64,000 nucleotides of DNA from an uncultured virus (IMG/VR IMGVR_UViG_3300042549_004140) (IMGVR_UViG_3300042549_004140); one strand, 5' to 3'. Counted from the stretch's first letter, positions 1 to 47,242 are shown. The notes: generated by a model from the sequence alone, not told the origin. Made by a program: numbers and translations.

Positions 1-96
1 ATTTCTAGCATCGTTAGCGAAGATTGCTCCGCAACTACAAGCGGCTCGGTAGTCGTTGGTTGACTCATACCAAGTGTCGATAATTTCGTGGTTCAT
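1..96 (-). CDS. Hypothetical protein (partial, runs off the window)
   Basis: ATG at 96 preceded by AAGGAG, a leader hairpin and a promoter. Confidence 0.6.
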   Translation of the reverse strand, partial: MNHEIIDTWYESTNDYRAACSCGAIFANDARN

Positions 97-133
97 CTGT
101 TTCTCCTTGCGGATTGGTTGGCTCCGCTCTTCA

Positions 134-162
134 AGTCTACGGCACATCGCAAGACAAGTCAA
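134..162 (-). promoter_or_regulatory. Sigma-70/SigA-type promoter, representative of the one in each cassette
   Basis: Minus strand TTGACT (162-157), N17, TAGACT (139-134). Similar TTGAC-N17/18-TANNNT-like pairs lie upstream of nearly every cassette and at ~12130-12160, 13300-13330, 14420-14450 and 16340-16370. Confidence 0.85.
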
Positions 163-242
163 GGATGGTCGCGTCGGTTTCTCTTTTTGGATTCCTGGTT
201 TTCTTATTCTGTTTGAGCGGAGCTCAAATTTCAATTTCAACG

Positions 243-269
243 AAAAACCCCCTAACCGAAGTTAGGGGG
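243..269 (-). terminator. Intrinsic terminator, representative of those closing the cassettes
   Basis: AAAAA-CCCCCTAAC-CGAA-GTTAGGGGG gives a hairpin plus U-tract on the minus strand, just after a stop codon. Confidence 0.85.
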
Positions 270-275
270 CAGTGA

Positions 276-425
276 TTACCAATTTTCGTTGATGAACTCT
301 AAGAGTTCTCTGTATGATTTTCCATCTGAAACCATTTTTACCAACTCGGCGTTTTCAGAAAGCAAGTCCGCCGGAACGGTGGTATCTCCTGAAAGCATAG
401 CGAGAGTATGGATTATCGTTGCCAT
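276..425 (-). CDS. Hypothetical protein, 49 aa
   Basis: ORF MATIIHTL...NENW ending just before the terminator. Confidence 0.6.
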   Translation of the reverse strand: MATIIHTLAMLSGDTTVPADLLSENAELVKMVSDGKSYRELLEFINENW

Positions 426-486
426 TTGTTTCTCTTTTCTTCTTGGTTGTGGTGAGCCTTTTTACAACTTGCTCGGGTTGTGGAAC

Positions 487-687
487 TTAGAGAGCGGTCT
501 GAACTACTTCAAACTTCACTCCACGCTGACGCAACTCAACTAGAAAGTCGCTGGCGTCGTATTCGTCTAACCAGACGAAATCGTTGTGCTTGGCAAATGC
601 TCGGTAGGCAGTAACGAATTTGAACTCGTTCTTATCTACTCGGAGAAAACCTTCGCCTTGTGCTTTCGCAAAAACAAACTTGGTCAT
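487..687 (-). CDS. Hypothetical protein
   Basis: GAGGAG RBS before MTKFVF; cassette context. Confidence 0.7.
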   Translation of the reverse strand: MTKFVFAKAQGEGFLRVDKNEFKFVTAYRAFAKHNDFVWLDEYDASDFLVELRQRGVKFEVVQTAL

Positions 688-893
688 TTCTCCTCCTCTC
701 GATTTGTTAGAGGCTTCCCCTTGCGGGCTGGACACTACGAGCCTATCACGATTGGGGCAGCCAAGTCAAATACTAAGCGACCGCGGCGGATTTTCTTTTT
801 TGGATTCCTGGTTTTGTTATTCTGTTTGAGCGGAGCTCCAATTTCAATTTCCCGGCACGAAGAAAGAGCCAACCTTTCGGCTGGCTCTCTCGT

Positions 894-1250
894 CTACTCG
901 CTTTCACAATAGCCGCACAGACCTTCTTGGTGAATAAACCAATCGTGGGGACAAAAGTCGGTTTCTTGTCGGTGAGCGATTGCGTCATCAACAAAAGCAA
1001 GAGCCTCGGCGTAGGTGTATTCCACTTCATCAACGACAATCGTCTTACCTAAATCCATTGAGGAAGTGTAAATCCTAGATACTTCGCGAAGTGTGTCTAG
1101 CGAATACTCAAGATACGGATTTGGCTTTGGCTCAAATGACTTCGCGAAGTCGTCAAAGTTTTCAGCGGTGAGCGTTCCGCCATTGGCGATAAACTCACTA
1201 ACGGCAAGCAACACTTCGTCAATGCCTTCTTGTTTTTTGGGTGTGGTCAT
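894..1250 (-). CDS. Hypothetical protein
   Basis: AAGGAG RBS before MTTPKK; cassette context. Confidence 0.75.
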   Translation of the reverse strand: MTTPKKQEGIDEVLLAVSEFIANGGTLTAENFDDFAKSFEPKPNPYLEYSLDTLREVSRIYTSSMDLGKTIVVDEVEYTYAEALAFVDDAIAHRQETDFCPHDWFIHQEGLCGYCESE

Positions 1251-1439
1251 TTTTATCTCCTTACGGATTGGTTGTATCCGCATACCTAGGTTATCACGCC
1301 AGCCTGACATAAGTCAAGAACCGAGCCGCGGCGGCTTTTTCTTTGGATTCAGGGGTTTCTTATTCTGTTTGAGCGGAGCTCAAATTTCAATTTCACGGCA
1401 CGCCGAAAAGCCTAACCCTTTCGGGCTAGGCTCTCGGTG

Positions 1440-2027
1440 CTAGGCGAACAAGTCGTATTTGTGCCTGTTCTCGTCTATGCGATTGGTCAGCCAATCCTGC
1501 GGAATGGTGTAGGCTCGCTTGCTGTTGTGCCAAGAGATAGGGGCATCATTGAAAGCAACCTCCACGACGGTTTCGTGAATGAATAGTCGCTCACCATTTC
1601 TGTTGAAGTAGTAGGCAAAGAAGTAATCAGACCAATACTTACTCCAACTAGGCACTCCGCGGTAGTTGTCGCTTGGCAACACAAACCTAGCGTAGTGAAG
1701 TCGGTATCTACCTCGCTCGGCTCTCGGTCTGCGGATAAGTTCTTCCAGACCGAACGGCTGACGAATGAACAAATCGCTATCTATCCAATTCTCAACAGCA
1801 ACCCTCCACTCGTAGTCGTTATCAACAAGAGCGATTTTTAGTGGTTCGGCGGTTTTGCTGTATCCGCCGATTTGTCCGTAATCTCTCGGCTTTGGGTAGT
1901 CATACTTGACAAACTGCGAGGGCATAAGGATTTTGTTATCGGCTGGCGTTTCCAAAACTCTGTGCGTTGGTATGCTATCAACGCTGTCGTCTAGGAAGTG
2001 GGTTCGTGCTTTGTAGACATCAAACAT
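1440..2027 (-). CDS. Hypothetical protein
   Basis: 195-aa ORF with GAGGAG RBS filling one cassette. Confidence 0.8.
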   Translation of the reverse strand: MFDVYKARTHFLDDSVDSIPTHRVLETPADNKILMPSQFVKYDYPKPRDYGQIGGYSKTAEPLKIALVDNDYEWRVAVENWIDSDLFIRQPFGLEELIRRPRAERGRYRLHYARFVLPSDNYRGVPSWSKYWSDYFFAYYFNRNGERLFIHETVVEVAFNDAPISWHNSKRAYTIPQDWLTNRIDENRHKYDLFA

Positions 2028-2211
2028 AGGTTCTCCTCTGCGGTTGGTTGTATCCGCTCTCTAAGTCTTTCATAGATAGTGAGGTTAGTCAAGTAGGCTG
2101 ACCGCGGCGACTTTTTTTTCTGAGAAGGGTTCTTTTATTCTGTTTGAGCGGAGCTCAATTTTCAATTTTCAAATGCCAAACGACCTACCCTTTCGGGCAG
2201 GTCGCTCTTGG

Positions 2212-2586
2212 CTATTCCTTGTAAAGTTGTTCGAGTGCTTGTCGCTGGACTTCTGCCATTCGCATTACTAGTTCTAGCATTTGGTCATTCAAACCTTCGG
2301 TGTATCCCTCTGGGTCTGTTCCGCCTGTAAAGACGACAGGACCGAGGATACATTGGTTCTCTACGCCAACGGCATCTTCGTAAATGGCAGTTGCCATAAA
2401 GTTTTCGGTGAAGTCGTTGCGGAATAAGCCTTCCTCGTTACACCACATAGTTAGGTTCGGTGGTCGAACATCTACGGGCTGTATCAAACCATCAACGGCT
2501 TTCTGTAAAACTGCGAGTGAGTTGTCGTTGTTGAATTCAACGATTTCCGATTTTCCGTCGGTCTGGACTACTAGTGCTTTCTTCAT
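2212..2586 (-). CDS. DUF3846-like protein
   Basis: LQKAVDGLIQPV...MWCNEEG...N..ATAIY...ILGPVVFTG pattern; AGGAG RBS. Confidence 0.65.
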   Translation of the reverse strand: MKKALVVQTDGKSEIVEFNNDNSLAVLQKAVDGLIQPVDVRPPNLTMWCNEEGLFRNDFTENFMATAIYEDAVGVENQCILGPVVFTGGTDPEGYTEGLNDQMLELVMRMAEVQRQALEQLYKE

Positions 2587-2779
2587 TATTTCTCCTGTGT
2601 GGCTGGTTGTATCCACACCTCAATCCTTTCACAGATGGCTAGGTATGTCAAGAACCCCCGGGGCGCGGTTTTCTTTTTTGGATTCCGGTTTTAATTATTT
2701 TGTATGCGCGGAGCGCTAATTCAATTTCCGGCAGCGAACCAAACCAGCCACCTGCTGAAAGCAGCTGGCTGGTCTTTGG

Positions 2780-3016
2780 TTACTCGGTGAAAGTTGTTGC
2801 TTTCTCTAACGCCGAAGAAAGTTTTGCGATTAGTTCAATCGTTTCTTCTAGCGAAAAAGCGGTGTCGCTTGACGAGATAATCCCGCCTCTCTCAACGTGA
2901 GTTGATAGAGTTAGTTGGACAACCTTGCCTTCTGGTAGGTAGTCGCTGTCCTCCTGGGTGCGGTCTACGGCAATAGCGGTTACGAGGGTTCTTGCTTTTC
3001 TTAGTGTCGTGGTCAT
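2780..3016 (-). CDS. Hypothetical protein
   Basis: GAGGTG RBS; fills one cassette. Confidence 0.7.
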   Translation of the reverse strand: MTTTLRKARTLVTAIAVDRTQEDSDYLPEGKVVQLTLSTHVERGGIISSSDTAFSLEETIELIAKLSSALEKATTFTE

Positions 3017-3180
3017 CTTCTCACCTCTTTTCCGGGGAAGCCTTCCCCTAAGTCCAGTCTAGCCGGACAGGGTGCGGCGGTCAAGTGTGGCTGCCGGCGC
3101 GGTTTTCTTTTTGGATATCTTGATTTAATTATTCTGTTTGCGCGGAGCGCGAATTTCAATTTCCGGAACGGCGAATAGCC

Positions 3181-3348
3181 TCACCTTGCGGTGAGGTATT
3201 CGTCAAGTAGGACTTCTTTTACAAAAAACCCGTCCTTCTTAGGTCGGCTGGGGTGAGCCAGCCACTCATAGGCGTAGTCGGAGTCGGTAACAACTTCAAT
3301 GATTGCGAAGTTGCGACCGAGGACATAGACGGTCTTGGGCTTACTCAT
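3181..3348 (-). CDS. Hypothetical protein
   Basis: GAGGAG RBS; overlaps the upstream stop. Confidence 0.6.
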   Translation of the reverse strand: MSKPKTVYVLGRNFAIIEVVTDSDYAYEWLAHPSRPKKDGFFVKEVLLDEYLTAR

Positions 3349-3679
3349 TGTCGCTCTCCTCAATCGGTGGCGAGCAAGTCAGGCAAACCTCGGTGTCGTC
3401 ATAAGCGTCACGCACATCTTCGGGAATGAACTCGTTACAGTAGTTACAAAGGTAAAGCAAGTCCTCGGTGAAATACTCCTTGATGAAGAAGTCGGTAGCA
3501 CCGTTCGGGTAGCCCTCTTTACAATCTCGGCACAGCCAGAAGTAAGTCAGTTCGCGAGCCTTCTGTGAGTCTTTGATGCCCTCTGGAATACTTGCGTTGA
3601 TTTCCACCAGAGCGAATGGGTCGCCGTCGTGAAAGACCGAACAACTGTCGCATTGGATTTCGCTGTATCTGCTAATCAT
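3341..3679 (-). CDS. Cys-rich (CxxC x4) hypothetical protein
   Basis: AGGAG RBS; four CxxC pairs. Confidence 0.75.
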   Translation of the reverse strand: MISRYSEIQCDSCSVFHDGDPFALVEINASIPEGIKDSQKARELTYFWLCRDCKEGYPNGATDFFIKEYFTEDLLYLCNYCNEFIPEDVRDAYDDTEVCLTCSPPIEESDNE

Positions 3680-3872
3680 AGATTTCTCCTATTGTGGTTG
3701 GTTGTGTCCACACTACAATTCTTCCACAGACGGTGCGGTATGTCAAACACCGATTTTGTCGCGGTCTTTTTCTTCTGAAAATGGGTTTTGTTATTCTGTC
3801 TGCGCGGAGCGCTAATTTCAATTTCAGCGAATGGCCGAAGCCACCTAACCATTTCTGATTAGGTGGCGTTGG

Positions 3873-4265
3873 CTATACTGCGACGGGTTCTATTCCCTCG
3901 GCCTTTTCAAGCGATTTAGCGAAGTTACGCTGGCTGTCCTCAATGGTGCGGTTGCCGATACGCTTTATCCATTGGCCGAACGTTTCGTTGCTGACGTTGG
4001 TTCCGTAGCCGATTACGCTTAGTAGGAAGTCGTAGTCATAGAGCGAAGTCTTGACTTTGGTTTCCTCGTCGTAGCGGTAACGAACGGGGCCGTAAAGGGC
4101 GTTCCAGATTTTGATACGGGTGTAAATGTCGCCTAAGTTTTCCTTAGTAACCTTGTTCACTCCGATTGCCATAAGTGCGTAGCAAAAGTAAGCAACGCTT
4201 TCTTTCCACTCCTCAGTGCCTTCGCTCCAATTAGCGACGCGTTCTGCGTTCCAATCTAGGGACAT
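3873..4265 (-). CDS. Hypothetical protein
   Basis: 130-aa ORF filling one cassette. Confidence 0.75.
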   Translation of the reverse strand: MSLDWNAERVANWSEGTEEWKESVAYFCYALMAIGVNKVTKENLGDIYTRIKIWNALYGPVRYRYDEETKVKTSLYDYDFLLSVIGYGTNVSNETFGQWIKRIGNRTIEDSQRNFAKSLEKAEGIEPVAV

Positions 4266-4619
4266 AGTGTCCTGCTTTCTGCGGTTGGTTGTGTCCGCAT
4301 AATAATTCTTTCACACTTACGCGGTCTTGTCAAACACAAGAGGTCGGCGCGGGCGTTTTTTTCTTCTGAAAAGGTTTTTAGTTATTCTGCTTGCGCGGAG
4401 CGCGAATTTCAATTTCAGCGGTAGGTCACAGGGGCTACCCGAAGATAGCCCCTGCTGGCGATAGTTTTTCGTGTCTCAACTTCGGATTGCTCCTAAGCCC
4501 TCACTCCGCTTACCAACGGCTAGTATTGCGGTCTACTAGCAGACGCCAAGTCTCAGCACATTCTAGAAAACTGTCTTGGCTCGTAGTGAGCAGTTTAGCC
4601 ACTTGCTCAGGTGGGTGGT

Positions 4620-4928
4620 TTATTCAGACGGACTTACGATTTCCTCGAACGCCTTGTTGACTTTGTCGGTTTCGGCTTTCTCGGCTCGTTCGATAATGTT
4701 GTGGACTAGTTCGCCAGCCTTGTCGGCGGCTCTAATGCCATTCATCATCAAGCCTAGCATTCCGCCGTGTTCCACAATGTCTTTTGGAAGTGCGTCTGCT
4801 GGAACATCTGGGTCTACTCCGTAGTGAATGGTCATCGCCATAATTCCACAGAGAGCAACAAGGTTCTTGACTTCTTCTTGAGACAAGTCGAAGTCTGGTA
4901 ACTCATTTGGGTTTCTTGCTGAAAGCAT
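4620..4928 (-). CDS. Hypothetical protein
   Basis: AAGGAG RBS; cassette context. Confidence 0.75.
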   Translation of the reverse strand: MLSARNPNELPDFDLSQEEVKNLVALCGIMAMTIHYGVDPDVPADALPKDIVEHGGMLGLMMNGIRAADKAGELVHNIIERAEKAETDKVNKAFEEIVSPSE

Positions 4929-5132
4929 AGTTTCTCCTTCGCGGTTGGTTGTGTCCGCATAATCAGTTTAGCGGTTCTGCCTGACATCTGTCAAGAGAGG
5001 CGGCGCGTTCTTTTTTTTTTTTGGATTTCTGGTTTTGATTATTCTGTTTGCGCGGAGCGCAATTTAGAATTTCACGCACCAAAACCTCAAGCCGAGGGAT
5101 TGGGGGGAGGCTCGGCTTGAGGCGGTCTTTGG

Positions 5133-5417
5133 TTAGAGGATTAGCAAAGCCTCTTTTGCGTCTTTCAGGGTTGTGTATCCCTGAAACTCGCCAAGAGTTT
5201 CTATTCCTTGTTTGGTGGCAACTCTGACGGTGTAAAGGTTTTTAGTTCCGTCAAAGTTTTTTTCGCTTGACACAAAACGCCAGCCGTCGTCGTGCTTGGC
5301 TAGGGTGTCGAAGTAGACGATAGATTGCCAAAACTTCATTGACTCTGGGCTAAACCAAGTAGGATTTGCCTTTTGGATTTGTGTCCAAGTTTTATTGGTT
5401 GCGGAAGTGTTCATCAT
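5133..5417 (-). CDS. Hypothetical protein
   Basis: AAGGAG RBS before MMNTS; cassette context. Confidence 0.75.
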   Translation of the reverse strand: MMNTSATNKTWTQIQKANPTWFSPESMKFWQSIVYFDTLAKHDDGWRFVSSEKNFDGTKNLYTVRVATKQGIETLGEFQGYTTLKDAKEALLIL

Positions 5418-5607
5418 TTTTATCTCCTTATGGTTGGTTGTGTCCACACTACAAGGTTACCATTTACGGCAACCTCGGTCAAGTATGGTCGGGCGGACTT
5501 TTTTCTTTGGATGTTTGTTTTTCTTATTCTGTTTGAACGGAGTTCAAATTATTCAATTTCCGGCCAGCCAGCCTCACCTCTCCTTTCGGAGAGGTTCGGC
5601 TTGAATA

Positions 5608-6123
5608 CTACTCGTATTCCTTACAGTTGGCACAGATACCGTTCTCGTCTTCGTAGACTTCGGCAGGAATACCTCCGTCACATTGCGAGCAAGACTCGGC
5701 TGGCGTGAATGTCCACCTGCCTGTCCCTGTCGGTTCATCGTGAGAATAACGAACGGCATACAACTCGTTACCCTTGATAGTAAACTTGTTCTTGAAGTCA
5801 CCGTCGATTTCCATAACCTTGTGGATTTCAGACACATCAACGAAACCTGCTCCGTTTGTACGATTCCATCGAATACTCTCAGCGATAACCATAACCTTGC
5901 CATCGTCTTTCAAGCCTCGGCGTTCTAGCCAAATAGGTAGGAAGTTGTCGTAAAACTGAAAGACTTCTTCTCGATAACAGTCATAGCACCATTCAGGTCG
6001 TTCTGGATAGCCGTACTCGTCTAACTTTGCCTCGCCTGTTTCTTCGTCATAGATTTCACAGACACAGTCGCTGGTTAGTGTTGCCTTGTATTCTTGTGTT
6101 TCCTCTGTCATTTGTTCCCTCAT
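5608..6123 (-). CDS. Acidic Cys-containing hypothetical protein
   Basis: 171-aa ORF filling one cassette. Confidence 0.75.
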   Translation of the reverse strand: MREQMTEETQEYKATLTSDCVCEIYDEETGEAKLDEYGYPERPEWCYDCYREEVFQFYDNFLPIWLERRGLKDDGKVMVIAESIRWNRTNGAGFVDVSEIHKVMEIDGDFKNKFTIKGNELYAVRYSHDEPTGTGRWTFTPAESCSQCDGGIPAEVYEDENGICANCKEYE

Positions 6124-6294
6124 TCTACGGATTGTCCCGTAAGTCTAGTCTTTCACACTTCGCGACTTGAGTCAAGTCGTGGGTCGGTCGCGAGCTTTTT
6201 TCTTTGGAAAATGCTTTTCTTATTCTGTCTGGGCGGAGCCCTAATTTCAATTTTCCAGCGGAAAAACCCCTAGCCTTTCGGCTAAGGGTCTTGA

Positions 6295-6684
6295 CTACTC
6301 TCCGCGAGTTTCTCCGCATAAGTCGTGAAAACCATTCATCAACTCATCTTCGTTGTCGCTTTCGATTAGTTGCTTACAATAGTGACAATAAACTTCTTCA
6401 TCATCATCATCATTGTCATACTCCATACGCTCACGCCAAGCGTCCGCAACATCACCGGGGTCTGCCTCGGTGTTGTATGGAGTTAGATAGGTGTCGCTGT
6501 CGCAAGAGCAACAGGGTCTATCCTCACATTGGCAACTGCCTCCGTTTGACGACATTAGGTATGGAAGTTCGGCTTTTGCTCGCTCGGCAAGTTCTCGCCA
6601 AGACGAACGGTTGAATGGGTGAGAGTTACGCTCGGCGTGTCCAAGAGCCTCAATGATTTTGTTGTATTCGTATTCAGATAACAT
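6295..6684 (-). CDS. Acidic Cys-rich hypothetical protein
   Basis: AGGGAG RBS before MLSEY; CQCEDRPCCSC motif. Confidence 0.75.
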   Translation of the reverse strand: MLSEYEYNKIIEALGHAERNSHPFNRSSWRELAERAKAELPYLMSSNGGSCQCEDRPCCSCDSDTYLTPYNTEADPGDVADAWRERMEYDNDDDDEEVYCHYCKQLIESDNEDELMNGFHDLCGETRGE

Positions 6685-6875
6685 AGTGTTCTCCCTTGTG
6701 GCTGGTTGTATCCACAGGTCAAGGTTATCACGATAGCCTGACATTCGTCAAGAGCGGTTCGTCGGACTTTTTTCTTCTGAAAATAGTTTTTCTTATTCTG
6801 TCTGGGCGGAGCCCTAATTTCAATTTTTGGCCAGAAAGCCAGAAACCACACCTTTCGGTGTGGCTCTGGTTCGGT

Positions 6876-7322
6876 TTAGTAGCCTCGGTCTTTGATTTCT
6901 ACTTCTGTTCCGTAGTCAAGGTCAAGGTCGTATCCGTCATTTCGGCGGTCATACGACAGCGAGATTTCGGCTTCAATCTCATCTTCCAAGCCTTCAAGCG
7001 ACTTACCAAGCGGAGTGGTAATCGTTCCTGTAACTTCAATGATGATTTTGACAGAGTGTTCTTCGGTTAGTTCCCACTCAAAGATTTCAGCAAGGCTAGT
7101 AACAAACTCGCTGTCGCCGTCAAGCACTTCTTCCTTGACAGCCTCAACGACAAGATTTTCGGCTTGTGTGATTTGGCTTTTGAGTTCGTTGCGGTCTGCG
7201 ATTGCTCGGTCAAACTGCGAGGTCTTGTAAGCCAAGTTGCTTTCAAGAGAGGCTACCTTTGCGAGTAGGGTTTCAATAGAAACTTCCTCGGTTGGTGTTT
7301 CTGGGTTTTCGTGTTCGGACAT
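6876..7322 (-). CDS. Acidic coiled-coil hypothetical protein
   Basis: GAGGG RBS before MSEHE; cassette context. Confidence 0.75.
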   Translation of the reverse strand: MSEHENPETPTEEVSIETLLAKVASLESNLAYKTSQFDRAIADRNELKSQITQAENLVVEAVKEEVLDGDSEFVTSLAEIFEWELTEEHSVKIIIEVTGTITTPLGKSLEGLEDEIEAEISLSYDRRNDGYDLDLDYGTEVEIKDRGY

Positions 7323-7521
7323 AATGCCCTCTGCTTTCTGTGGTTGGTTGTATCCACATAATAATTCAACCACAATCCGTATTCCAAGTCAAGTAGGGGT
7401 CGGCGGACTTTTTTCTTCTGAAAATAGTTTTTAATTATTCTGTTTGTGCGGAGCACTAATTTCAATTTCCGCCGAGCAACGAAAAACCCCCAACTTTCGT
7501 TGAGGGTTGTTCGTTGAATGT

Positions 7522-7896
7522 TTATCCGTAGACTAACTTTCCAAAGAAAGCGTATTGAAGGATTGCGTCTGAACCACAAAAGTCCAAGTCCTCCCAATCT
7601 ATCTTTGCCCCGCAGTGGTGGTAGTCGTCTTTGATTGCGAGAGCGTAGCCACGAACAAGGTCATCAATGTTGAGTTCCTTCTTTACGAACTTGTCGTAAT
7701 CTTCGGGGTCCTCACACCAGAGCGTAAGTAACCCTGGTTCGTTCCAATCCGAGCCTTCGCTGTATTTCCACTTCTGCCACCAAGAGCCTTCCTCCCAGCC
7801 ACTACCGAGAACGCAAGACCAGAACTCTCTTACATCAACAGCGAACGGAATAATGATACTTCCGTAGTTCTTTTTTACTTCTAGTTTTTCACTCAT
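7522..7896 (-). CDS. Hypothetical protein
   Basis: GAGGA RBS before MSEKL. Confidence 0.7.
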   Translation of the reverse strand: MSEKLEVKKNYGSIIIPFAVDVREFWSCVLGSGWEEGSWWQKWKYSEGSDWNEPGLLTLWCEDPEDYDKFVKKELNIDDLVRGYALAIKDDYHHCGAKIDWEDLDFCGSDAILQYAFFGKLVYG

Positions 7897-8110
7897 TTTG
7901 TTCCTCATTTCCTAGATAGTGAGTGTTTGTGTTTTCGTCTGTCCAATACATAGCGGTTTGGCAGTTTGGGCAGAACGGGGTTGTGTAGTTATCCATACAG
8001 CCATACCAGCCAGAATACCAAACATCAGATTTGGCACAGGTGTCAGAGCAGTAGAGAACTTCGTCAATGGTGTCGCCATTTATGTCTTGAATAAAAACTA
8101 CATTAGCCAT
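7889..8110 (-). CDS. Small Cys-containing hypothetical protein
   Basis: ORF coupled to both neighbours. Confidence 0.65.
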   Translation of the reverse strand: MANVVFIQDINGDTIDEVLYCSDTCAKSDVWYSGWYGCMDNYTTPFCPNCQTAMYWTDENTNTHYLGNEEQNE

Positions 8111-8258
8111 TATTTATCTTCTTCATTTCCGCACGAAACAACTGCGTTGCCTCACGCTTGGTGTAAAAGAAATACTGACGAGATACTAAGTATCCGTTTT
8201 TGTCGGAGGCGTAAAGTTCCCACGCACCCTGAAAAGTTCTTCGGTAATTGATTGCCAT
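8103..8258 (-). CDS. Hypothetical protein, 51 aa
   Basis: AGGAG RBS before MAINYRR. Confidence 0.6.
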   Translation of the reverse strand: MAINYRRTFQGAWELYASDKNGYLVSRQYFFYTKREATQLFRAEMKKINNG

Positions 8259-8702
8259 TTTTTCTCCTAGTTGGTTGATAGGTAGAACCGAGTGAGAGAG
8301 TGAATGAGGGGGAGGTCTTTACTCTATCTCACTCGGTTCTAAGTCAAGTCTAAACGAAAGCCCTGACATTTGTCAATACAAGTTTGAGGTCGGCGGACTT
8401 TTTCTTTTTTGAAAAAGGTTTTAATTATTCTGTTTTGGGCGGAGCCCAATTTTCAATTTCCGCTCAAAGGCGTTAGTCGCCTACCGAGGAGAAAGCATAA
8501 CGCCTCGGTAGACGACCTCAACACACTATTTACAGAAAGGAGATTTCTATGAATAGAGCCTTTTTCTAACTTGCTCAGGTTACTTGCCAATGTCATCTCT
8601 GAATAATGTAGTTTGGGGGGAAACTACCTCAATGTTGAACTTACAAGGCGAAGTCTTGGTGGTAAGCAGTTTTACAACTTGCTTAGGTTGTGGAGGGTGC
8701 GA

Positions 8703-9023
8703 CTACGCAGTTCTGATGTAGTCGTATTCGGTTGTCCGTAGAGTGGCTTGGAAAGCCTCTGGAAACATAGTTTCCAACATCTCTCGGTCAAACGAAGTGT
8801 TCTTGCTAGATACCAACGAGAACGCTTTGGTCTTGCCAACATAGCCAACCTTTTTGCCAGCCTTGTCAAGAGCCTCGCGAAGTAGTTGCTCGGCTTGTGC
8901 CTTGCGTTCCTTTGCTGATTTTTCGTCTGCCTTTGCCTGAACAAAGTCAGCGATAGCGTCTTTCACCTTTTTTGAAGTGATAGATACTGCGTCGTCTGGC
9001 AACTGAAATTCGTTATTGCTCAT
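8703..9023 (-). CDS. Hypothetical protein
   Basis: AAGGAG RBS; cassette context. Confidence 0.75.
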   Translation of the reverse strand: MSNNEFQLPDDAVSITSKKVKDAIADFVQAKADEKSAKERKAQAEQLLREALDKAGKKVGYVGKTKAFSLVSSKNTSFDREMLETMFPEAFQATLRTTEYDYIRTA

Positions 9024-9229
9024 TTGTATTTCTCCTTGTGAGATTGTCTATTTGCCTCACATAACAATCTAACCACACAGCACCGACATTTGTCAATACC
9101 AACTTTGGAGGGTCGCGACTTTTTTCTTTTGAAAAAGGTTTTTAATTATTCTGTTTTGAGCGGAGCTCAATTATTCAATTTCCGCTGGCAAACCAAAGCC
9201 CGAACGGATTTCTCCATTCGGGCTATCGG

Positions 9230-9670
9230 TTAGGAAACTTTGACCCAACGACTAGCGGTTTGTAGCAAGTGGTCGTAGTCGCCACTTGTGCTTTCCTTGT
9301 AGTATTCGTCAAGTTCCGTCTGTGGAACGCCAGCCTTACGGAGTGCCTTTTGAACAGCACCCATAATCGCAAAGGCGTTTCCGTCTGTGCCTGTGAGTTT
9401 TACTTTTACATCTGGGTATTTGATGTTTGACATTTTTTCACTTTCGGTTAGTTTGATTTTTGTTGCTAGGGCATCAACGCCACCTTGTCGGTATGCGTCA
9501 AGTATGTCCTCGATAATCCTGTCATTTATGACTTCAAGGAAGTTTCCGTCATTGACTTCTTCTCCCATCATAAAGGACAAGTCCTCGGTGTCGTATTCCA
9601 TTACGATTGTGATTTTGGCTTTCACTTTGTTACCTTTCGTCATTCGGGTCATAGTCCGCGAAGTAATCAT
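9230..9670 (-). CDS. Hypothetical protein (start uncertain; possibly two fused modules)
   Basis: The C-terminal half (VKLTGTDGNAFAIMGAV..ALRKAG..SGDYDHLL) resembles a small conserved phage protein. Confidence 0.65.
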   Translation of the reverse strand: MITSRTMTRMTKGNKVKAKITIVMEYDTEDLSFMMGEEVNDGNFLEVINDRIIEDILDAYRQGGVDALATKIKLTESEKMSNIKYPDVKVKLTGTDGNAFAIMGAVQKALRKAGVPQTELDEYYKESTSGDYDHLLQTASRWVKVS

Positions 9671-9878
9671 CTCGGTCTTGGTCGAGGCTACTCTCTCGGT
9701 TGGTTACTCCGCAGAACTCACATTCCACAGAGTAGTTGCCCCAATCGTCAGTTGTTGCTTGACTTGCCTCGTTGGTTTTTTCGCACTCCTCGTTCTCGCA
9801 ATCGAACTCGTCATACGAAACTTCCTGTGCGTAGATACCAGACCCACGCATAGAACCCTCTGGGTAGTTGCTACTCAT
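9630..9878 (-). CDS. Acidic Zn-ribbon-like hypothetical protein
   Basis: CxxxxC...CxxC; coupled ORF. Confidence 0.65.
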   Translation of the reverse strand: MSSNYPEGSMRGSGIYAQEVSYDEFDCENEECEKTNEASQATTDDWGNYSVECEFCGVTNRESSLDQDRDDYFADYDPNDER

Positions 9879-10123
9879 TAGTCCTCCTTTGGTCTTAGAA
9901 TAATGATTGGTGTGTTCTCGTCATAGTCATACGAGTTCGTTAGTAGTTCTTCTAGCGTGTCTACCCACAAGCAACCTACTCCGTCTGGTGAGTAGAAGTA
10001 GTCGGTTTGGCGACCCATTTCATCTTGGTAGATTACATCTGTTCGCCAGCCCTCCTCCATACCACGCCATTCGTAGTCTGCGTGGGTTAGATACATAACT
10101 GATTTTTTGGTTGGTTTAGTCAT
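9878..10123 (-). CDS. Hypothetical protein
   Basis: AAAGGA RBS before MTKPT. Confidence 0.65.
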   Translation of the reverse strand: MTKPTKKSVMYLTHADYEWRGMEEGWRTDVIYQDEMGRQTDYFYSPDGVGCLWVDTLEELLTNSYDYDENTPIIILRPKED

Positions 10124-10378
10124 TGTGTTCCTTTCCATAATACAAGTCTAGCGGTTTGGGCTGACAAGTCAAGCGTGGGTCGAGGTCGGCGTTCTTTTTC
10201 TTTTGAAAAAGGTTTTAGTTATTCTGGCTGTGCGGAGCACGAATTATTCAATTTCCGGCCAGAAAGGGTGAACCCCCCTAGCAACCAATCTAGGGGGGTT
10301 CGGCAGAGGTGAAAGTAAACAAAGCCCTCTGCGGTTATCGGTAGGGGAAATGAGAATAAAAAACCTACCGATAAGTTG

Positions 10379-10777
10379 TTACACGATTTCTGGTTCTGGC
10401 TCTAACGCACTTGGCTTTTCACGAACCAAGACATTACGAGTGAATGAGGAGTTTCCCCACGCTAGGTCGTGTGAAATGCTGTCTGCCTCAATCTCGACAG
10501 AAGTTCCTGCTCGCTCTCCGTTATCCCAATCTCGGATAACGATACTTCCTGTTAGAGATACACGCTCGCCTTTGTGGATAGAACCTGCGGTGTTGATAGC
10601 CAACTGACGGAACGAAGTGATTGTATACCAATTCGTGTGTTCCTTGTATTTTCCGTCAGCGTTGCTGGTGTAGCCCTCGGTTTCCGCTACTCGGAATGAA
10701 GTTATTGGTAATCCCTCTGCGGTTACTATGTGTCGTGGTGTGGTCGCTACTAGACCTGTGATTGTGATTTTTGCCAT
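10379..10777 (-). CDS. ssb: Single-stranded DNA-binding protein
   Basis: ITITGLVATTP...ITSFRVA...TNWYTITSFRQLAIN...KGERVSLTG...SVEIEADSISHDL is an actinobacterial SSB OB-fold pattern. Confidence 0.9.
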   Translation of the reverse strand: MAKITITGLVATTPRHIVTAEGLPITSFRVAETEGYTSNADGKYKEHTNWYTITSFRQLAINTAGSIHKGERVSLTGSIVIRDWDNGERAGTSVEIEADSISHDLAWGNSSFTRNVLVREKPSALEPEPEIV

Positions 10778-10783
10778 TTTGTC

Positions 10784-11053
10784 CTACTTTCCGTATCGGC
10801 GTTGGTGCTTGGTTAGTTTGGTTTCTGAAATCATTTGGACTACTTCTTGGCGTTCGCTACGGAATTTGGTTTCCACAGCCACAGCCTCGGAGTAGCATAG
10901 TGATTTGATTTGTGTTTCTGTGATTGCTCGGAACACTCGTAGTTCTGCGGAGGTCTGCTCGTTTAGAAGTTCGAGTGCTTTTTTGAGGCTTGGTAGAACC
11001 TCAATGAGCGTGATGTTATCGGTGTTGGTGTCGTAGATTGCGTAGTTGGTCAT
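10784..11053 (-). CDS. Hypothetical protein
   Basis: ORF with AAAGG RBS in the operon. Confidence 0.65.
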   Translation of the reverse strand: MTNYAIYDTNTDNITLIEVLPSLKKALELLNEQTSAELRVFRAITETQIKSLCYSEAVAVETKFRSERQEVVQMISETKLTKHQRRYGK

Positions 11054-11074
11054 TTTTACCTTTCTACTGAAAGT

Positions 11075-11365
11075 CTACTTGTTTTGGAGTTCCAAGTCAA
11101 GAAGGAACTTTTTGTCGAATTCTGTCGCTCGCATTTTCATTCTCCAGCCCGCCAAAATAACTAAGTCGCATAGGTCGTAATCTAACGCTTTTGCTAGGCA
11201 CTCCAAGATTTCTGACGAACCTTCTTTCTGCCCTCGCTCGACTTCCGAGATGTAACCAAGAGCCACAGACGACTTCGTTGAAAGTTGGCGTAGCGTTAGC
11301 ATTTTCTCCTCGGTGCGGATTTCTTTTATGATTTCTCCGATTGCGTGGTTGAATTTCATTTTCAC
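11075..11365 (-). CDS. XRE-family HTH regulator, ClgR-like
   Basis: LTLRQLS..SSVALGYISEVERGQKEGSSEILECLAKALD matches the actinobacterial ClgR HTH pattern. Confidence 0.8.
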   Translation of the reverse strand: MKMKFNHAIGEIIKEIRTEEKMLTLRQLSTKSSVALGYISEVERGQKEGSSEILECLAKALDYDLCDLVILAGWRMKMRATEFDKKFLLDLELQNK

Positions 11366-11367
11366 TC

Positions 11368-11790
11368 CTAGTAAATAAGGTTTGGTTCTTCTGGGTTGAG
11401 GTCTGGCTTATTGCGTTCCTCTTGTTGAGCATACGCAAAAGCAACTGCCTCGTCTAGTTCAAAGATTGGCTCGGAGTAATAATCGAGGTCGGTGTCCGAG
11501 TAAACCTCGAACCAAGGATTGTTATACCAAGTTATTAGGTCTTTGTCGGCTAGTCGTTTGAGGTCGGTGTCGCTTTTGATACCTGCCTCCTCTAAGTCGG
11601 CTGGTTGCCTAATGTCGTGTTCTTTGCCCTCCTCGTCTACGAGAAGTATTCGAGTATCGCCACAGGCGACAACATAGAAGTCGCAATCGTCAGATTTCCA
11701 GACAACCTCTACATCACCGCTTGTGTAAAAAATAGCGTCTTGCTGGTCGAGGTCTGTGCCATAGGCACTAAGGTTCTCAATGAGAGCCAC
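11368..11790 (-). CDS. Acidic hypothetical protein, ends EEPNLIY
   Basis: ORF track; operon context. Confidence 0.75.
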   Translation of the reverse strand: MALIENLSAYGTDLDQQDAIFYTSGDVEVVWKSDDCDFYVVACGDTRILLVDEEGKEHDIRQPADLEEAGIKSDTDLKRLADKDLITWYNNPWFEVYSDTDLDYYSEPIFELDEAVAFAYAQQEERNKPDLNPEEPNLIY

Positions 11791-12101
11791 TACTCGACCT
11801 CCCTCGGCTCATACTCAATCGCACCGGTATCGGCATTGACAATGACAGGTGGGTTGTCGTCAGCGTAGTCAATGTCGCTGGCAACGCTAATCCCGAAACC
11901 GAGGTTGCCTGTGTAGTTGCCGAGTTCAGCGAACTTGTGGAAAATCTGTGCTGTCAAGTAAGAGGGGTCGCCAACTCGGTCTGTGTGAGTTAGCACTTCC
12001 TCAACTGCCTTGATGTTATCTTCGCCTGACCAATGCCCGTAGAGGTGGATTGGTTTTTCGAATTGTTCCGAAGTGATGTAGATACTTGCTCTGTCGCCCA
12101 T
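11790..12101 (-). CDS. Hypothetical protein
   Basis: MGDRA...LYGHWSG; own promoter and RBS. Confidence 0.75.
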   Translation of the reverse strand: MGDRASIYITSEQFEKPIHLYGHWSGEDNIKAVEEVLTHTDRVGDPSYLTAQIFHKFAELGNYTGNLGFGISVASDIDYADDNPPVIVNADTGAIEYEPREVE

Positions 12102-12161
12102 TTTGTTTGTCCTTTCTCTGGGTCTAATCCAAGTCTAGTCTTTTGGTGGTGCTTGTCAAGT

Positions 12162-12509
12162 TTAGTAAACGATTTCTTTTTCTTCGCCTGAACAAGACAC
12201 GCAGACTTTCTCTCCCTTGTCTTTTTCTTTGGCATTGTAGTCATAACCAAAGCAATCTTGACATTTGAACTTTACGAGAGTGTCGTGTAGCGAACTTCTG
12301 AAAGTGTCCTGCGTAATGTCGGCCAGATAGTCGGTGTCCATTCCGTCAATAACTTTCAACCAATCTTCGTCTTTTATCTCGAAGTCCTCCACATCTCCGT
12401 TGTGGAGTTCAGCAACCTCGTCTTTGTCGTAGATGATTGCGAAAACCTGCTCGTCAGGGTCTTTCCTTGCGAAATAGTCCGCGAGCCACTTATTCGTGTA
12501 AACAGCCAT
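12162..12509 (-). CDS. Zn-ribbon protein, paralog 1, ends EEKEIVY
   Basis: C-terminal CxxC..CxxC; similar to the 12509 and 13330 ORFs. Confidence 0.8.
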   Translation of the reverse strand: MAVYTNKWLADYFARKDPDEQVFAIIYDKDEVAELHNGDVEDFEIKDEDWLKVIDGMDTDYLADITQDTFRSSLHDTLVKFKCQDCFGYDYNAKEKDKGEKVCVSCSGEEKEIVY

Positions 12510-12856
12510 TAGTAGACCTCATCTTCTTCTTCGCCACAGCCCTTACAGATGTTCTCGCCTGTGTCGCCAGCGTTTTTGAGTTCGTAGTCGAGAGTGTCGC
12601 ATTGTTCGCACTTATAGCCCGACATTACATCATAAACGCTGTCCGAGAAGTCCTCGTAATAGCCCTCGTAAATCCTACTTCGATTTTCGACAGCAGTAGC
12701 GATTGTCGCCCAATGCTCGTCTTTGATTTTGAAACGAGCGTCAAACCCGCCTCCGTAGAAACTGCTCTCCACATCTCGGCGGTCAAACCAAGTGATGATG
12801 ATTTCATCTTCTGGGTCTAACCCAGAGAGTGCCTCTAAAACTTTGCTAACTTTCAT
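12509..12856 (-). CDS. Zn-ribbon protein, paralog 2, ends EEEDEVY
   Basis: Same architecture as the 12162 ORF. Confidence 0.8.
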   Translation of the reverse strand: MKVSKVLEALSGLDPEDEIIITWFDRRDVESSFYGGGFDARFKIKDEHWATIATAVENRSRIYEGYYEDFSDSVYDVMSGYKCEQCDTLDYELKNAGDTGENICKGCGEEEDEVY

Positions 12857-12866
12857 TTTGTCCTCT

Positions 12867-13292
12867 CTAAATCAAGTTTGGTTCATAAGCAGGGAGGCTG
12901 TCAAGCCATTCGACTAACTTTCTTGGGGCAATCCCACCGCTTTTGTTCACTAGGTCGTTCACATAGTCGGAGGTGTTGCCCAAGTAGGTAGTCCACTCGT
13001 CTAGGTCGCCTATTGCTAACCAATCTGGCATACCGAGTTTGTAGCAGAGCAGGTAGTCAATCATTTTGTAGTCTGCCTCTTTATCGGGGTAAAAGTTCTC
13101 TGTGAAATACTCTGCGCTGTAATCTGTGCCGAGGACTTCCTCTGGGTCGTCTTTATCAACCGATAGTTGATACGCTGTGATGTTCAGCACTCCGCTTTCG
13201 AGCGACCAGATGTTTATGTCATAGTTGCGATAGCCCGAATACATTATTGGGGGCGTAACCAAGTCTGGTTCTTCGTAGATTTTTCTGTCCAT
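12867..13292 (-). CDS. Hypothetical protein
   Basis: 141-aa ORF directly behind a promoter (possibly leaderless). Confidence 0.7.
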   Translation of the reverse strand: MDRKIYEEPDLVTPPIMYSGYRNYDINIWSLESGVLNITAYQLSVDKDDPEEVLGTDYSAEYFTENFYPDKEADYKMIDYLLCYKLGMPDWLAIGDLDEWTTYLGNTSDYVNDLVNKSGGIAPRKLVEWLDSLPAYEPNLI

Positions 13293-34074: not shown

Positions 34075-34605
34075 CTAGATTCCTTGCCTTCCTTGAGTCC
34101 AGTCAATCTTTCTACCAGAGGCTACAGCCTCTTTCACTCTACGCAACCTACCAGAGATTATGTCTTTAGATGTACCAAGCAGCTTTCCGATCTCGCTCAA
34201 TGAGAGGTCTGGATTATTGATTCGCGCCTGAAGTATGTCAAAGGTCTCCAGAGGCATACCTTCCCGTTGCTCTTCTAGGGCCTGCTTGTATAGGTGAATG
34301 CTTGCCTCCAAAGCCATTCTTGGCCGGTCAGCGTTTACGGCCCTGGCCACTACCAATGCATGACCTTTCGGCTTGTCAGTGCCCCTGGCAACTCGGCGTC
34401 TCTCCCTCTCCGTTAGACCACCCCAGACTCCAACTTCATCAAGCATTGTCAGCCCCATGTCTCGACACTCCTTTTGAACAGGGCATCTCATGCAAATAGA
34501 CTTTGCATAACGCAGGGTCTCGCGGTCATAGGCACCATCATCATCTGGAAAGAAGACGTCCAAATCTTTTTCGTCTTTGCAGACTCCTTGAGTCATATCA
34601 AACAT
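34075..34605 (-). CDS. whiB: WhiB-family regulator fused to a WhiA-like C-terminal HTH
   Basis: C..FFP..AKSICMRCPVQKEC..GVWGGLTERERR, then ARINNPDLSLSEIGKLLGTSKDIISGRLRR. Confidence 0.85.
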   Translation of the reverse strand: MFDMTQGVCKDEKDLDVFFPDDDGAYDRETLRYAKSICMRCPVQKECRDMGLTMLDEVGVWGGLTERERRRVARGTDKPKGHALVVARAVNADRPRMALEASIHLYKQALEEQREGMPLETFDILQARINNPDLSLSEIGKLLGTSKDIISGRLRRVKEAVASGRKIDWTQGRQGI

Positions 34606-46882: not shown

Positions 46883-47242
46883 ATGAGCTGCTCAATTTCT
46901 GGTGTTTACAACATATCCTGTGATCAAGGTGCCACTTTCTCGCGAGTCATCACTTGGACCGACTCAGCACGCTCGCCATACAACATTACCGGCTATACCG
47001 CTAGAATGCACGTTAGATCCAATGTTACCGCTAATACCACCGCTATCACGCTCACAACAGAAAACAGCCGAATCACACTAGGCGGCGCAGCTGGAACCGT
47101 GACCCTAACTATTGCCGCAACAGACACAGCGAACTTAACTGCAGGTCTTTATGTATACGACCTAGAACTCGTCTCTTCGGCTAACGTTGTAACCCGTCTT
47201 ATTGAAGGTAACTTTAACGTTAAGGCCGAGGTGACGCGCTAG
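46883..47242 (+). CDS. Tail-fibre-associated Ig/BppU-like protein
   Basis: DQGATF...GYTARM.VR...YVYDLEL...RLIEG.F.V..EVTR, directly upstream of the fibre gene. Confidence 0.65.

Follow-up and report, generated by a model that had tools for sequence, protein, structure and literature searches.

Gene cassettes with PeSL-like repeated modules and optional GNA-loop palindromes in an uncultured freshwater actinophage

In T4-like phages, the intergenic PeSL (promoter/stem-loop) elements join a terminator stem-loop to an AT-rich region and a strong sigma-70-like promoter, and homologous exchange takes place between their copies, as described by Arbiol and Comeau (PMC2839356, PMC4122927). A structured element of another kind is found in phage N4, where the early promoters P1-P3, read by the virion RNA polymerase, carry on the template strand a small hairpin with the heptamer GCGGAGC and a 3-nt GGA or GAA loop closed by a C:G pair (PMC4496689, PMC13037366). 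Features of both kinds are combined in the 64,000-nt stretch IMGVR_UViG_3300042549_004140 of an uncultured virus from IMG/VR (hereafter the window, meaning the whole of this stretch), which contains a row of gene cassettes headed by a PeSL-like repeated module in which an 11-bp perfect palindrome, NNNC-GGA-GNNN (hereafter the mini-hairpin), is embedded. Each kind of element is known, and their combination appears to be new; no published description of such hairpin-headed arrays was found in the literature, as judged partly from the titles and abstract openings of the papers listed.

According to the review by Hirao (PMC13037366), of all 64 GCNNNGC loops GNA alone, with any N, gives an extraordinarily stable DNA mini-hairpin; d(GCGNNAGC) likewise forms a mini-hairpin, and the N4 mini-virion RNA polymerase (mini-vRNAP) binds the GCGGAGC mini-hairpin, with loop GGA or GAA. 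The natural GNA mini-hairpin sites named in that review are few, namely the N4 early promoters and the priming sites of G4 and RSF1010. The N4-type hairpin is reported to extrude from duplex DNA at physiological supercoiling, in a gyrase-dependent manner and in vivo, and when placed between the -35 and -10 sequences of rrnB P1 it silences that promoter until gyrase is inhibited (PMC4496689).

A regular-expression search of the window for 4-bp complementary arms around GGA detects 16 perfect palindromes of the form given above, all co-oriented on the + strand and 434-1072 bp apart, with the cassette genes on the minus strand (Table 1). The stems are GAGC and GCGC (five copies each), GGGC (three), GTGC (two) and GAAC (one), in exact agreement with the number, orientation and variants listed in the original prediction for this DNA, and variants are common to neighbouring copies. 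Elsewhere in the window only three GGA palindromes occur (26970 on the + strand, 4814 and 24 on the minus strand), all without the flanking sequences. A looser flank-plus-loop pattern gives 15 matches versus a mean of 1.6 in dinucleotide shuffles, none of 100 shuffles reaching 15; 14 of the 15 are true copies, and the remaining two copies have a 1-nt insertion in the flank. As a background control, the motif's 3′ half was matched by chance at least 120 times in metagenome contigs, and among the 120 matches listed one was palindromic. The suspected continuation of the array to the left of the window is borne out by three IMG/VR records of the same phage (G001, G002 and G003; 99.9-100% identity over 31.6-51.7 kb), which contribute seven further copies and one extra compensated variant, GCAC/GTGC. 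The full array thus has 23 copies, 21 of which contain the heptamer GCGGAGC, and is bounded by the gene for a single-stranded DNA-binding protein (SSB) on one side and by lysin, terminase and portal genes on the other.

The element that had been described as ~35 bp long is the core of a larger, intergenic repeated module of ~160 bp, which was aligned across the 16 units in transcription orientation; the predicted order of parts (terminator, element, A-tract, TTGAC/TAnnnT promoter, leader, Shine-Dalgarno sequence, gene) is retained in this alignment. Each module starts with a variable GC-rich terminator-like stem-loop, whose loop is mostly GAAA, GCAA or TTCG and which is often followed by T's; such a stem-loop precedes every unit (examples in Table 1). 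It is followed by an A/T-rich block composed of GAAATTGAAATT, the palindrome (GNGC-TCC-GCNC on the sense strand), A(A/G)ACAGAATAA and an A-tract, then by a GC-rich box of 15-23 bp, a TTGAC -35 and a TGnTAnnCT-type -10 sequence. A leader hairpin (GYGG...CCRC), the Shine-Dalgarno sequence AGGAG and the start codon complete the module, after which come one to three genes, mostly ORFans. The predicted promoters are of the sigma-70/sigmaA type. Their TTGAC -35 and TAnnnT -10 sequences align in 16/16 units, seven of which were flagged as predicted promoters at a threshold of at least 9/12 matches, and in the remaining nine the TTGAC -35 lies at an equal offset in the alignment; a consensus scan counted 28 promoter-like sites versus 11.6 ± 3.3 in shuffles and also picked up terminator-like stem-loops ahead of the units. 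With promoter-like and terminator-like signals of its own and mostly ORFan content, each cassette appears to be independently expressed, as had been proposed; the early or host-takeover timing proposed along with this is presumptive.

Relatives were collected through the large terminase (TerL), 80 loci being kept of 433 related IMG/VR stretches. Five related uncultured phages have an array of this kind upstream of TerL, differing in its stems and loops: L153 and L154, with TerL identities of 97-98%, and L168, L169 and L170, with identities of 89-91%. The distance from the hairpin to the -35 sequence is 52-61 bp in the phage of the window, 51-57 bp in L153, 54-60 bp in L154, 52-57 bp in L168/L169 and 41-52 bp in L170. 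Given this distance and the occurrence of the same promoter type without a hairpin, the element itself is not the promoter, as had been suggested that it might be; within the window, promoters of this type that lack the upstream block are located at ~11100, 12160 and 13330. A weak second motif, TTGAAA/CAGAAT, whose 17-18-nt spacer is filled by the hairpin, was flagged in 11/16 window units and was rejected as a real upstream promoter, the spacing being 19-20 in L154 and the hexamers missing in L168/L169.

When seven arrays were scanned without fixing the loop (GC-rich 4-bp palindromes, any 3-5-nt loop, A/T-rich flanks), 62 matches were obtained, comprising 49 of the form C|TNC|G, with all four bases at N, eight of the form C|TNNC|G (TATC, TTAC), two register duplicates and three others. 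Read on the template strand these are C-GNA-G and C-GNNA-G, so that 57/62 palindromes obey the loop rule of the d(GCGNAGC) and d(GCGNNAGC) mini-hairpins, in which a GNA or GNNA loop with any N is closed by C:G (PMC13037366). The motif as treated there belongs to physical chemistry, its known natural sites being replication origins (G4, ssiA) and the N4 promoters and not rows of copies ahead of host-type promoters. Across the hairpin-bearing phages the stems are of 4-8 bp and change by compensated substitution only. The loop type is mostly uniform within a genome, being GGA throughout in the phage of the window and GATA or GAA in L153, and the loop centre is A, C, G or T inside the single genomes of L168, L169 and L170. 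The purine loop is on the template strand in ~89 copies versus 4 on the sense strand. The hairpin is 4 nt from AGAATAA, but 7-9 nt in L154, and a unit has one to three hairpins, L168/L169 sometimes having two or three. Tandem mini-hairpins, two or three per unit and 15-29 nt apart, can be seen at L168:3337-3373, 4444-4502 and 5817-5854 and at L170:1526-1551 and 2064-2118; the flanks in L170 are GC-rich with spaced A4 tracts and not A/T-rich.

The original prediction held that structure rather than sequence is selected, and this view is sustained: pairing is intact in 23/23 copies of the window's phage, and orthologous promoters keep a perfect palindrome while stem and loop change. One orthologous cassette carries the hairpin GAGC-TCC-GCTC, GAGC-TATC-GCTC or AGCCGAG-CAAG-CTCGGCT in three phages, with an almost identical promoter and leader. 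If the flanks (AGAATAA and a TTGAC downstream of it) are made the sole criterion for a unit, perfect hairpins are found in 21/21 units of this phage, 10/11 of L153 and 11/11 of L154; the exception in L153 has one arm of the GAGC type and the other of the GGGC type (GAGC...GCCC), as a crossover in the loop would yield. In an alignment of 77 copies, 69 of them distinct, the inner four pairs are paired by the selection of copies; pairs 5 and 6, not used for selection, are paired in 50/69 and 51/69 distinct copies, with several pair types, and no shuffle or slid register comes near these values.

Perfect pairing might also be expected of a small selfish or neutral insertion that has no function and is kept perfect by intrastrand template switching and gene conversion among copies, templated correction being one of the known ways in which palindrome arms mutate. 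The patchy occurrence among close relatives, the varying copy number per unit and a loop type that is largely uniform per genome, as under concerted evolution, would all fit such an origin, which is nevertheless quite unlikely. A mismatched arm occurs in only 1/43 flank-defined units of the three closest hairpin-bearing phages, neutral drift does not predict the G(N)NA/C:G rule or the strand bias, and the hairpin is always at one position in the module, the remaining 53.7 kb of the window having 10 such palindromes, five per strand. An operator, at which a dimeric phage or host regulator would coordinate shut-off of the array, is a further candidate, to which the HTH_3 regulator and a fusion of a WhiB-like protein with a helix-turn-helix (HTH) domain, both encoded in the window, could be relevant; a site read as duplex, however, would keep its sequence and not its pairing, and the stem here varies freely if complementary. 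If the hairpin were instead a primase signal of the G4/ssiA type on one strand, the mini-hairpins at the G4 and RSF1010 priming sites (PMC13037366) would be its precedent and the phage-encoded primase/helicase its possible partner, but 23 sites tied to promoters are hard to rationalise as priming signals. No gene co-occurs with the hairpin in the comparable region, and an operator or priming role is, in our judgement, highly improbable.

The element is read as a DNA and not an RNA structure because the GNA/GNNA rule matches the DNA mini-hairpins and because the sense-strand terminators of the same genomes, with long stems and GAAA/GCAA tetraloops, are of a different design. If it functioned as RNA, it could be a small intrinsic terminator on the antisense strand, in which the hairpin and the T-rich tract following it on the + strand keep divergent or spurious antisense transcripts that leave each strong promoter from running into the preceding cassette. 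In fact, the + strand of several copies (211-229, 1367-1385 and 8435-8449 among them) is flagged as terminator-like, the stem in L168/L169 extends to 8 bp (TTTG...CAAA) and is followed by a long T-run on the antisense strand, and the flipped copies of L154 would still fold as RNA. This explanation is unlikely, however, as it accounts neither for the G(N)NA/C:G rule nor for the preference for triloops in genomes whose RNA terminators have long stems and GNRA/UUCG tetraloops. The GATA loop of nine L153 copies is not GNRA, a 4-bp stem with a triloop is estimated to be very weak as RNA, and the A-richness of the sense strand to either side of the hairpin makes a T-run on the opposite strand unspecific; large terminator hairpins are, moreover, already present immediately beyond.

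The mini-hairpin is an optional insert in the A/T block, present in six related lineages and missing from a close relative and most others. In that close relative, L155 (TerL identity of 96%, and 55-90% for many proteins), promoters and the homologous A/T block can be recognised, with a GC palindrome in 0/12 units, and L164, L165 and L167 likewise have the terminator, A/T block and promoter without the hairpin. The 129-kb freshwater Actinomycetia phage DSL-LC01 has no element match and no enrichment of C-GGA-G, and the paper describing it contains no mention of 'promoter' or 'repeat'; the first 29.6 kb of Microbacterium phage Pumpernickel contain 10 scattered G(N)NA palindromes, no repeated 11-mer and nothing comparable to the array. 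No open reading frame (ORF) of at least 70 aa is shared by this phage with all three hairpin-bearing records G006-G008 and absent from all three hairpin-less ones, G009-G011, the hairpin-less contigs covering ~22 kb upstream of the array.

Gene order in the array is not fixed in the relatives, whereas a fixed order had been named in the original prediction as an outcome that would refute it. With the cassettes of the window's phage numbered c01-c23, L153 has the order c09, c10, c12, c13, c11, c14, c15, c17, c20, c23, and L154 has c10, c05, c13, c12, c14, c16, c15, c17, c19, c20, c22, c23; the order in L155 is c14 (weak), c06, c10, c09, c13, c05, c15, c20, c23. Among the homology ends, taken from the best non-overlapping nucleotide alignments inside the array, 29/36 are located within -60 to +130 of the hairpin start, a zone that occupies 31% of the array. 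Between relatives, exchange inside the repeated module has led to gain, loss and permutation of cassettes. A 1825-nt contig of run X14 joins position 6214 to 6788, skipping exactly 573 bp between two identical GGGC units, with 40 letters shared at the joint. Joints that lead backwards in contigs of the DNA runs have sides of 31-63 letters inside repeats and give no interpretable sign of excised mini-circles, a feature of the PeSL kind; joints with 24-34-letter sides were set aside, being contig ends inside the repeat.

The proposal that the element is a recombination joint is upheld in so far as breakpoints are located in the repeated module; the hairpin itself is not needed, hairpin-less L155 being permuted too. 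A stronger form of the proposal would make recombination the primary role, the extruded hairpin being cut by a structure-specific nuclease of the phage resolvase or host SbcCD type with breaks at the cassette borders. The clustering of breakpoints in the module would be expected in that case, as would the hybrid L153 hairpin, which resembles a loop crossover, and the sharing of variants by neighbouring copies, and in RB49 a PeSL crossover has been mapped to its stem-loop's loop (PMC2839356). Set against these are the equal permutation of L155, the 60-160 bp of module homology, which are enough for exchange without a hairpin, the indirect nature of selection for evolvability, and the strand bias and fixed promoter offset, which a hotspot leaves unexplained; as the primary role it is improbable. 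A connection with the serine recombinase encoded at 55142, also suggested earlier, finds no backing, as nothing links this 217-aa protein to the element and a syntenic, 68%-identical orthologue is present in hairpin-less DSL-LC01.

Comparison with PeSL, likewise invoked in the original prediction, holds for architecture and for shuffling. Both are composite intergenic repeats of a terminator stem-loop, an AT-rich region and a sigma-70-like promoter that border ORFans in a plastic region; exchange between copies leads to the indels, replacements and permutations that distinguish close relatives, and no dedicated recombinase is required. The comparison does not extend to the mini-hairpin: the stem-loop of PeSL is a large terminator hairpin, whereas the mini-hairpin is an extra element in the AT-rich block with a DNA-type GNA loop. 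The GC-rich box between the A-tract and the -35 sequence is likewise not mentioned in the PeSL descriptions consulted (PMC2839356), and PeSL belong to T4-like myoviruses, in contrast to an actinophage related to Microbacterium phages and DSL-LC01.

The reading favoured here, which as a whole package we hold only tentatively and put somewhat below an even chance, is that of PeSL-like shuffling cassettes with an optional supercoil-driven DNA mini-cruciform that modulates or insulates the adjacent early promoter. The palindrome would work as DNA, negative supercoiling extruding a small cruciform from the easily melted A/T-rich surroundings, as is the case for the N4 promoter hairpin. The cruciform would then act in cis on the early promoter ~60 bp downstream, which host RNA polymerase would read, either as a torsion-dependent modulator or as an insulator between closely packed, strongly transcribed units. 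Shuffling would proceed by ordinary homologous recombination between module copies, as proposed for PeSL, with the hairpin at most facilitating a break or crossover point. A mini-cruciform of this kind is favoured because of the N4 precedent, the A/T-rich block, the roughly constant promoter offset and the packing of the units. The descriptive parts of this account are much firmer than the mechanism.

Several observations weigh against it. The copies are paralogous and the phages related, so that the pairing counts overstate the number of independent events, and paralogous similarity draws the ends of high-scoring segment pairs into the repeated block, which makes the binomial P of ~2e-9 for the clustering of homology ends generous. 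The X14 joint, seen in one de Bruijn contig at 4.8x with a 40-nt repeat, could be an assembly artefact. L154 has four units in which the GAA loop is on the sense strand and two units outside the loop rule (CAAG, CAG), and GNNA closed by C:G is an RNA GNRA design too, so that the eight tetraloop cases alone cannot separate DNA from RNA. A nearest-neighbour DNA model gives -4 to -9 kcal/mol, equal for both strands; standard DNA parameters contain no mini-hairpin term, and the extra stability rests on the rule in the literature (PMC13037366). Because the hairpin is dispensable in L155-type phages, any regulatory effect would be non-essential. Finally, a plain cruciform leaves the bias of purine loops towards the template strand unexplained.

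It is because of this bias that a reading of the N4 type stays alive, if only as a doubtful one. The template-strand hairpin would be recognised by a phage-encoded, possibly injected, single-subunit RNA polymerase or a primase, and RNA synthesis would begin at a set distance downstream of it, so that every cassette would possess, upstream of its host-type promoter, another one specific to the phage. The N4 P2 promoter has the same GCGGAGC heptamer, 3-nt GGA loop and location on the template strand (PMC4496689, PMC13037366), and with the N4 spacing, in which the start is 8 nt downstream of -8 (PMC4496689), the start would be the G of the invariant GAATAA, as counted on the 16-unit alignment. 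In both systems the stem is small, its variable positions need only pair, and the hairpin is of the type that extrudes in vivo under gyrase-driven supercoiling (PMC4496689); N4-type hairpins combine a stem of 5-7 bp with a 3-nt loop and a GC-rich heptamer, and those of this genome do so too, with stems of 4-7 bp. The SSB gene adjoining the array and a giant ORF behind the portal gene, of at least 1766 aa in this phage and 3289 aa in DSL-LC01, also speak for this reading, but both the giant protein and SSB are present in hairpin-less relatives too, SSB occurring in hairpin-bearing and hairpin-less records alike.

There are other differences from N4. N4 is described as having three promoters at one genome end, with a fixed sequence from -17 to +1 and a purine at -11, and as encoding gp50; the present array has 23 copies, with a host-type promoter downstream of each, and in the relatives the loop centre, the flanks and the copy number per unit vary and the hairpin can be absent. 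A G at -11, which is read in N4 (PMC4496689), together with a fixed distance to the predicted start, is found in this genome only, the loop centre being any base in L168-L170 and the distance to AGAATAA shifting in L154. One to three tandem hairpins per unit in L168, the four flipped copies in L154 and the lack of hairpins in the close relative L155 likewise do not fit. Searches of PHROGs, Pfam, PDB sequences and the ESM Atlas with the giant proteins of the virion region gave no match to an RNA polymerase, a DEDDh exonuclease domain being all that was detected, and searches of the partial records revealed no polymerase; PF00940 had no match in G001, G002, G006, G007 and G008, a weak test, as these records are 36-43% complete and control genomes were unmatched as well. 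An 890-aa ORF at 24740-27412 was rejected as a polymerase candidate, as it contains a lectin-like stretch instead. That the hairpins are start signals, as promoters or primer sites, for an unrecognised hairpin-reading polymerase of siphovirus-like actinophages, parallel to host-type promoters on every early cassette, is therefore rather improbable; if true, it would place the N4-style strategy of structured single-strand promoters outside the N4-like podoviruses.

Two further systems bear comparison. Integron cassettes are promoterless and need a tyrosine integrase and an imperfect attC site of 57-141 bp. They resemble the present array in forming a one-orientation row of small unrelated genes with structured sites whose pairing is conserved on one strand, and differ in that the cassettes here come with a promoter and a terminator each, the 11-bp palindrome is perfect, and the only recombinase is of the small serine type. 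The repetitive extragenic palindromes (REP) and the mosaic elements built from them (BIME) are short, strand-specific extragenic palindromes between transcription units, with compensatory variation and proposed roles in DNA topology; REPs, which RAYT transposases spread, are imperfect, have a greater length and are usually located after genes. The mini-hairpin shares their strand specificity, extragenic position and compensatory change, and differs in being 11 bp and perfect; no RAYT was seen here, in annotation that included no search aimed at one.

To the few known natural sites the present phages add ~90 GNA mini-hairpins, in six related phages and at one defined place upstream of host-type promoters. 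They also provide natural material in the form of abundant compensatory change, a natural knock-out (the close relative without the hairpin) and flipped copies, by which a long-standing question, whether tiny cruciforms arise in vivo in systems other than N4 and have any importance there, becomes directly testable. The PeSL shuffling model is extended from T4-like coliphages to abundant freshwater actinophages, in which 20-50 ORFan cassettes precede the terminase gene.

Table 1. Positions in the window of the cassette array, its mini-hairpins and predicted signals, and the bordering SSB gene
Feature	Position	Strand	Remarks
23-unit cassette array, window part (16 units)	1..10300	- (genes)	7 more units to the left, in G001/G002/G003
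Mini-hairpin GAGC-GGA-GCTC	215..225	+ (= template strand; GNA loop)	stem extendable to 7 bp
Mini-hairpin GAGC-GGA-GCTC	828..838	+	
Mini-hairpin GAGC-GGA-GCTC	1371..1381	+	7-bp extended stem
Mini-hairpin GAGC-GGA-GCTC	2146..2156	+	orthologous unit: loop GATA in L153, other 7-bp stem in L154
Mini-hairpin GCGC-GGA-GCGC	2706..2716	+	
Mini-hairpin GCGC-GGA-GCGC	3140..3150	+	
Mini-hairpin GCGC-GGA-GCGC	3802..3812	+	
Mini-hairpin GCGC-GGA-GCGC	4393..4403	+	
Mini-hairpin GCGC-GGA-GCGC	5050..5060	+	
Mini-hairpin GAAC-GGA-GTTC	5535..5545	+	third stem pair compensated too
Mini-hairpin GGGC-GGA-GCCC	6231..6241	+	one border of 573-bp cassette absent from run X14 contig
Mini-hairpin GGGC-GGA-GCCC	6804..6814	+	other border of cassette absent from X14 contig
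Mini-hairpin GTGC-GGA-GCAC	7446..7456	+	
Mini-hairpin GGGC-GGA-GCCC	8437..8447	+	6-bp extended stem; flank 1 nt longer
Mini-hairpin GAGC-GGA-GCTC	9158..9168	+	6-bp extended stem
Mini-hairpin GTGC-GGA-GCAC	10230..10240	+	first unit in transcription order, just downstream of SSB gene
Promoter-like TTGACT-17-TAGACT	134..162	-	unit of hairpin 215
Promoter-like TTGACC-17-TAGACT	3056..3084	-	unit of hairpin 3140
Promoter-like TTGACA-17-AAGAAT, TG extension	3718..3746	-	unit of hairpin 3802
Promoter-like TTGACA-17-AAGAAT, TG extension	4305..4333	-	unit of hairpin 4393
Promoter-like TTGACA-18-TAAACT	4965..4994	-	unit of hairpin 5050
Promoter-like TTGACA-18-TAGACT	8347..8376	-	unit of hairpin 8437
Promoter-like TTGACT-16-TAGACT	10145..10172	-	unit of hairpin 10230
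Weak second promoter-like motif TTGAAA-17-CAGAAT, spacer = hairpin	206..234	-	
Terminator-like GC stem-loop, 10 pairs, TTCG loop, T-run	247..270	-	closes cassette upstream of hairpin 215
Terminator-like stem-loop, GAAA loop	7485..7508	-	before hairpin 7446
Terminator-like stem-loop, 12 pairs	9197..9224	-	before hairpin 9158
SSB gene, upstream bound of array	10379..10777	-	also in hairpin-less relatives

The source is, judging from its gene content, an uncultured, siphovirus-like freshwater actinophage. PHROG and Pfam scans detect two WhiB-like proteins, a ribonucleotide reductase, a thymidylate synthase and a primase/helicase, as befits a large actinophage. The primase is 50-53% identical to those of 186-195-kb Microbacterium phages and 66% identical to that of DSL-LC01, and TerL is likewise closest to DSL-LC01 and Microbacterium phages. 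The stretch is present in 24 public runs, all of lake-water DNA and none of RNA; no nucleotide match to deposited phages was found in near or distant mode, and no tRNAs were found in the window. Downstream of the array, on the same strand, are genes for an NlpC/P60 protein, a peptidoglycan-binding protein, the large terminase and the portal protein, followed by the giant ORF, and upstream of it are the genes for SSB and the HTH_3 regulator. No Pfam family was assigned to 29/34 ORFs scanned, which comprised 29 in the array and five just upstream.

The giant ORF is located at L022:3-5300 on the minus strand, to the left of the window, where the contig end cuts it, and its DEDDh exonuclease domain is at residues 1290-1490. 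Its counterpart in DSL-LC01 (L029:2800-12669) is alike only over the first ~300 residues (35% identity). The two long WhiB-like proteins are encoded at 34075-34605 and 62577-63119, both on the minus strand, the former being fused to a C-terminal HTH that matches WhiA-type and sigma-70 region-4-type models. A collagen-like tail-fibre ORF of 1810 aa (47242-52674, + strand) gives very strong repeated matches to tail-fibre PHROGs.

Two RNA-like motifs accompany the cassettes. The leader hairpin, GYGG-AYACAACCAR-CCRC, is found between the -10 and Shine-Dalgarno sequences of most units (for example 2040-2060, 2610-2630 and 7340-7360, minus strand) and would lie at the 5′ end of the mRNA; its second pair switches from C-G to T-A with compensation, and the same leader is present in L153 and L154. 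Its role might be to stabilise the mRNA or to offer a site for a regulator. A 32-34-nt motif with H-type pseudoknot topology occurs on the minus strand at 452-483, 4585-4617, 8555-8586 and 8662-8695. It lies in the non-coding stretch behind three cassette genes, just past the stops of the longest ORFs (487, 4620 and 8703), and is found twice, ~110 nt apart, at the third. Stem 1 is ACAAC/GTTGT, CCAC/GTGG or TAAC/GTTA and stem 2 is TGAGC/GCTCA or TAAGC/GCTTA, with compensated changes and an A-rich linker. The motif is also present in L155 (4344, 4469) and L169 and has no Rfam match at E <= 1; over positions 1-13000 the only Rfam match at that threshold was a chance one to psRNA14 (28.7 bits versus a gathering score of 60).

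Repeats of other kinds can be detected in the relatives. A second cluster of small palindromes with a TTC loop lies just downstream of TerL in L151 (11430-11600), L164 (10124-11063) and L167 (11440-11519), with a repeated ACTGGAGTTGAAC word alongside, and L151 has, from ~12040, a long tandem run of the hexamer GGGCTT between TerL and a small-terminase-like gene. In DSL-LC01, a different promoter of the extended -10 type, AGATTCTAAAGATGTTATAAT, is repeated at least 33 times in the region L028:22600-43330; a 5-bp inverted repeat (GATTC...GAATC) brackets its extended -10 sequence, with matched changes in some copies (AGATC...GATCT, GAATC...GATTC).

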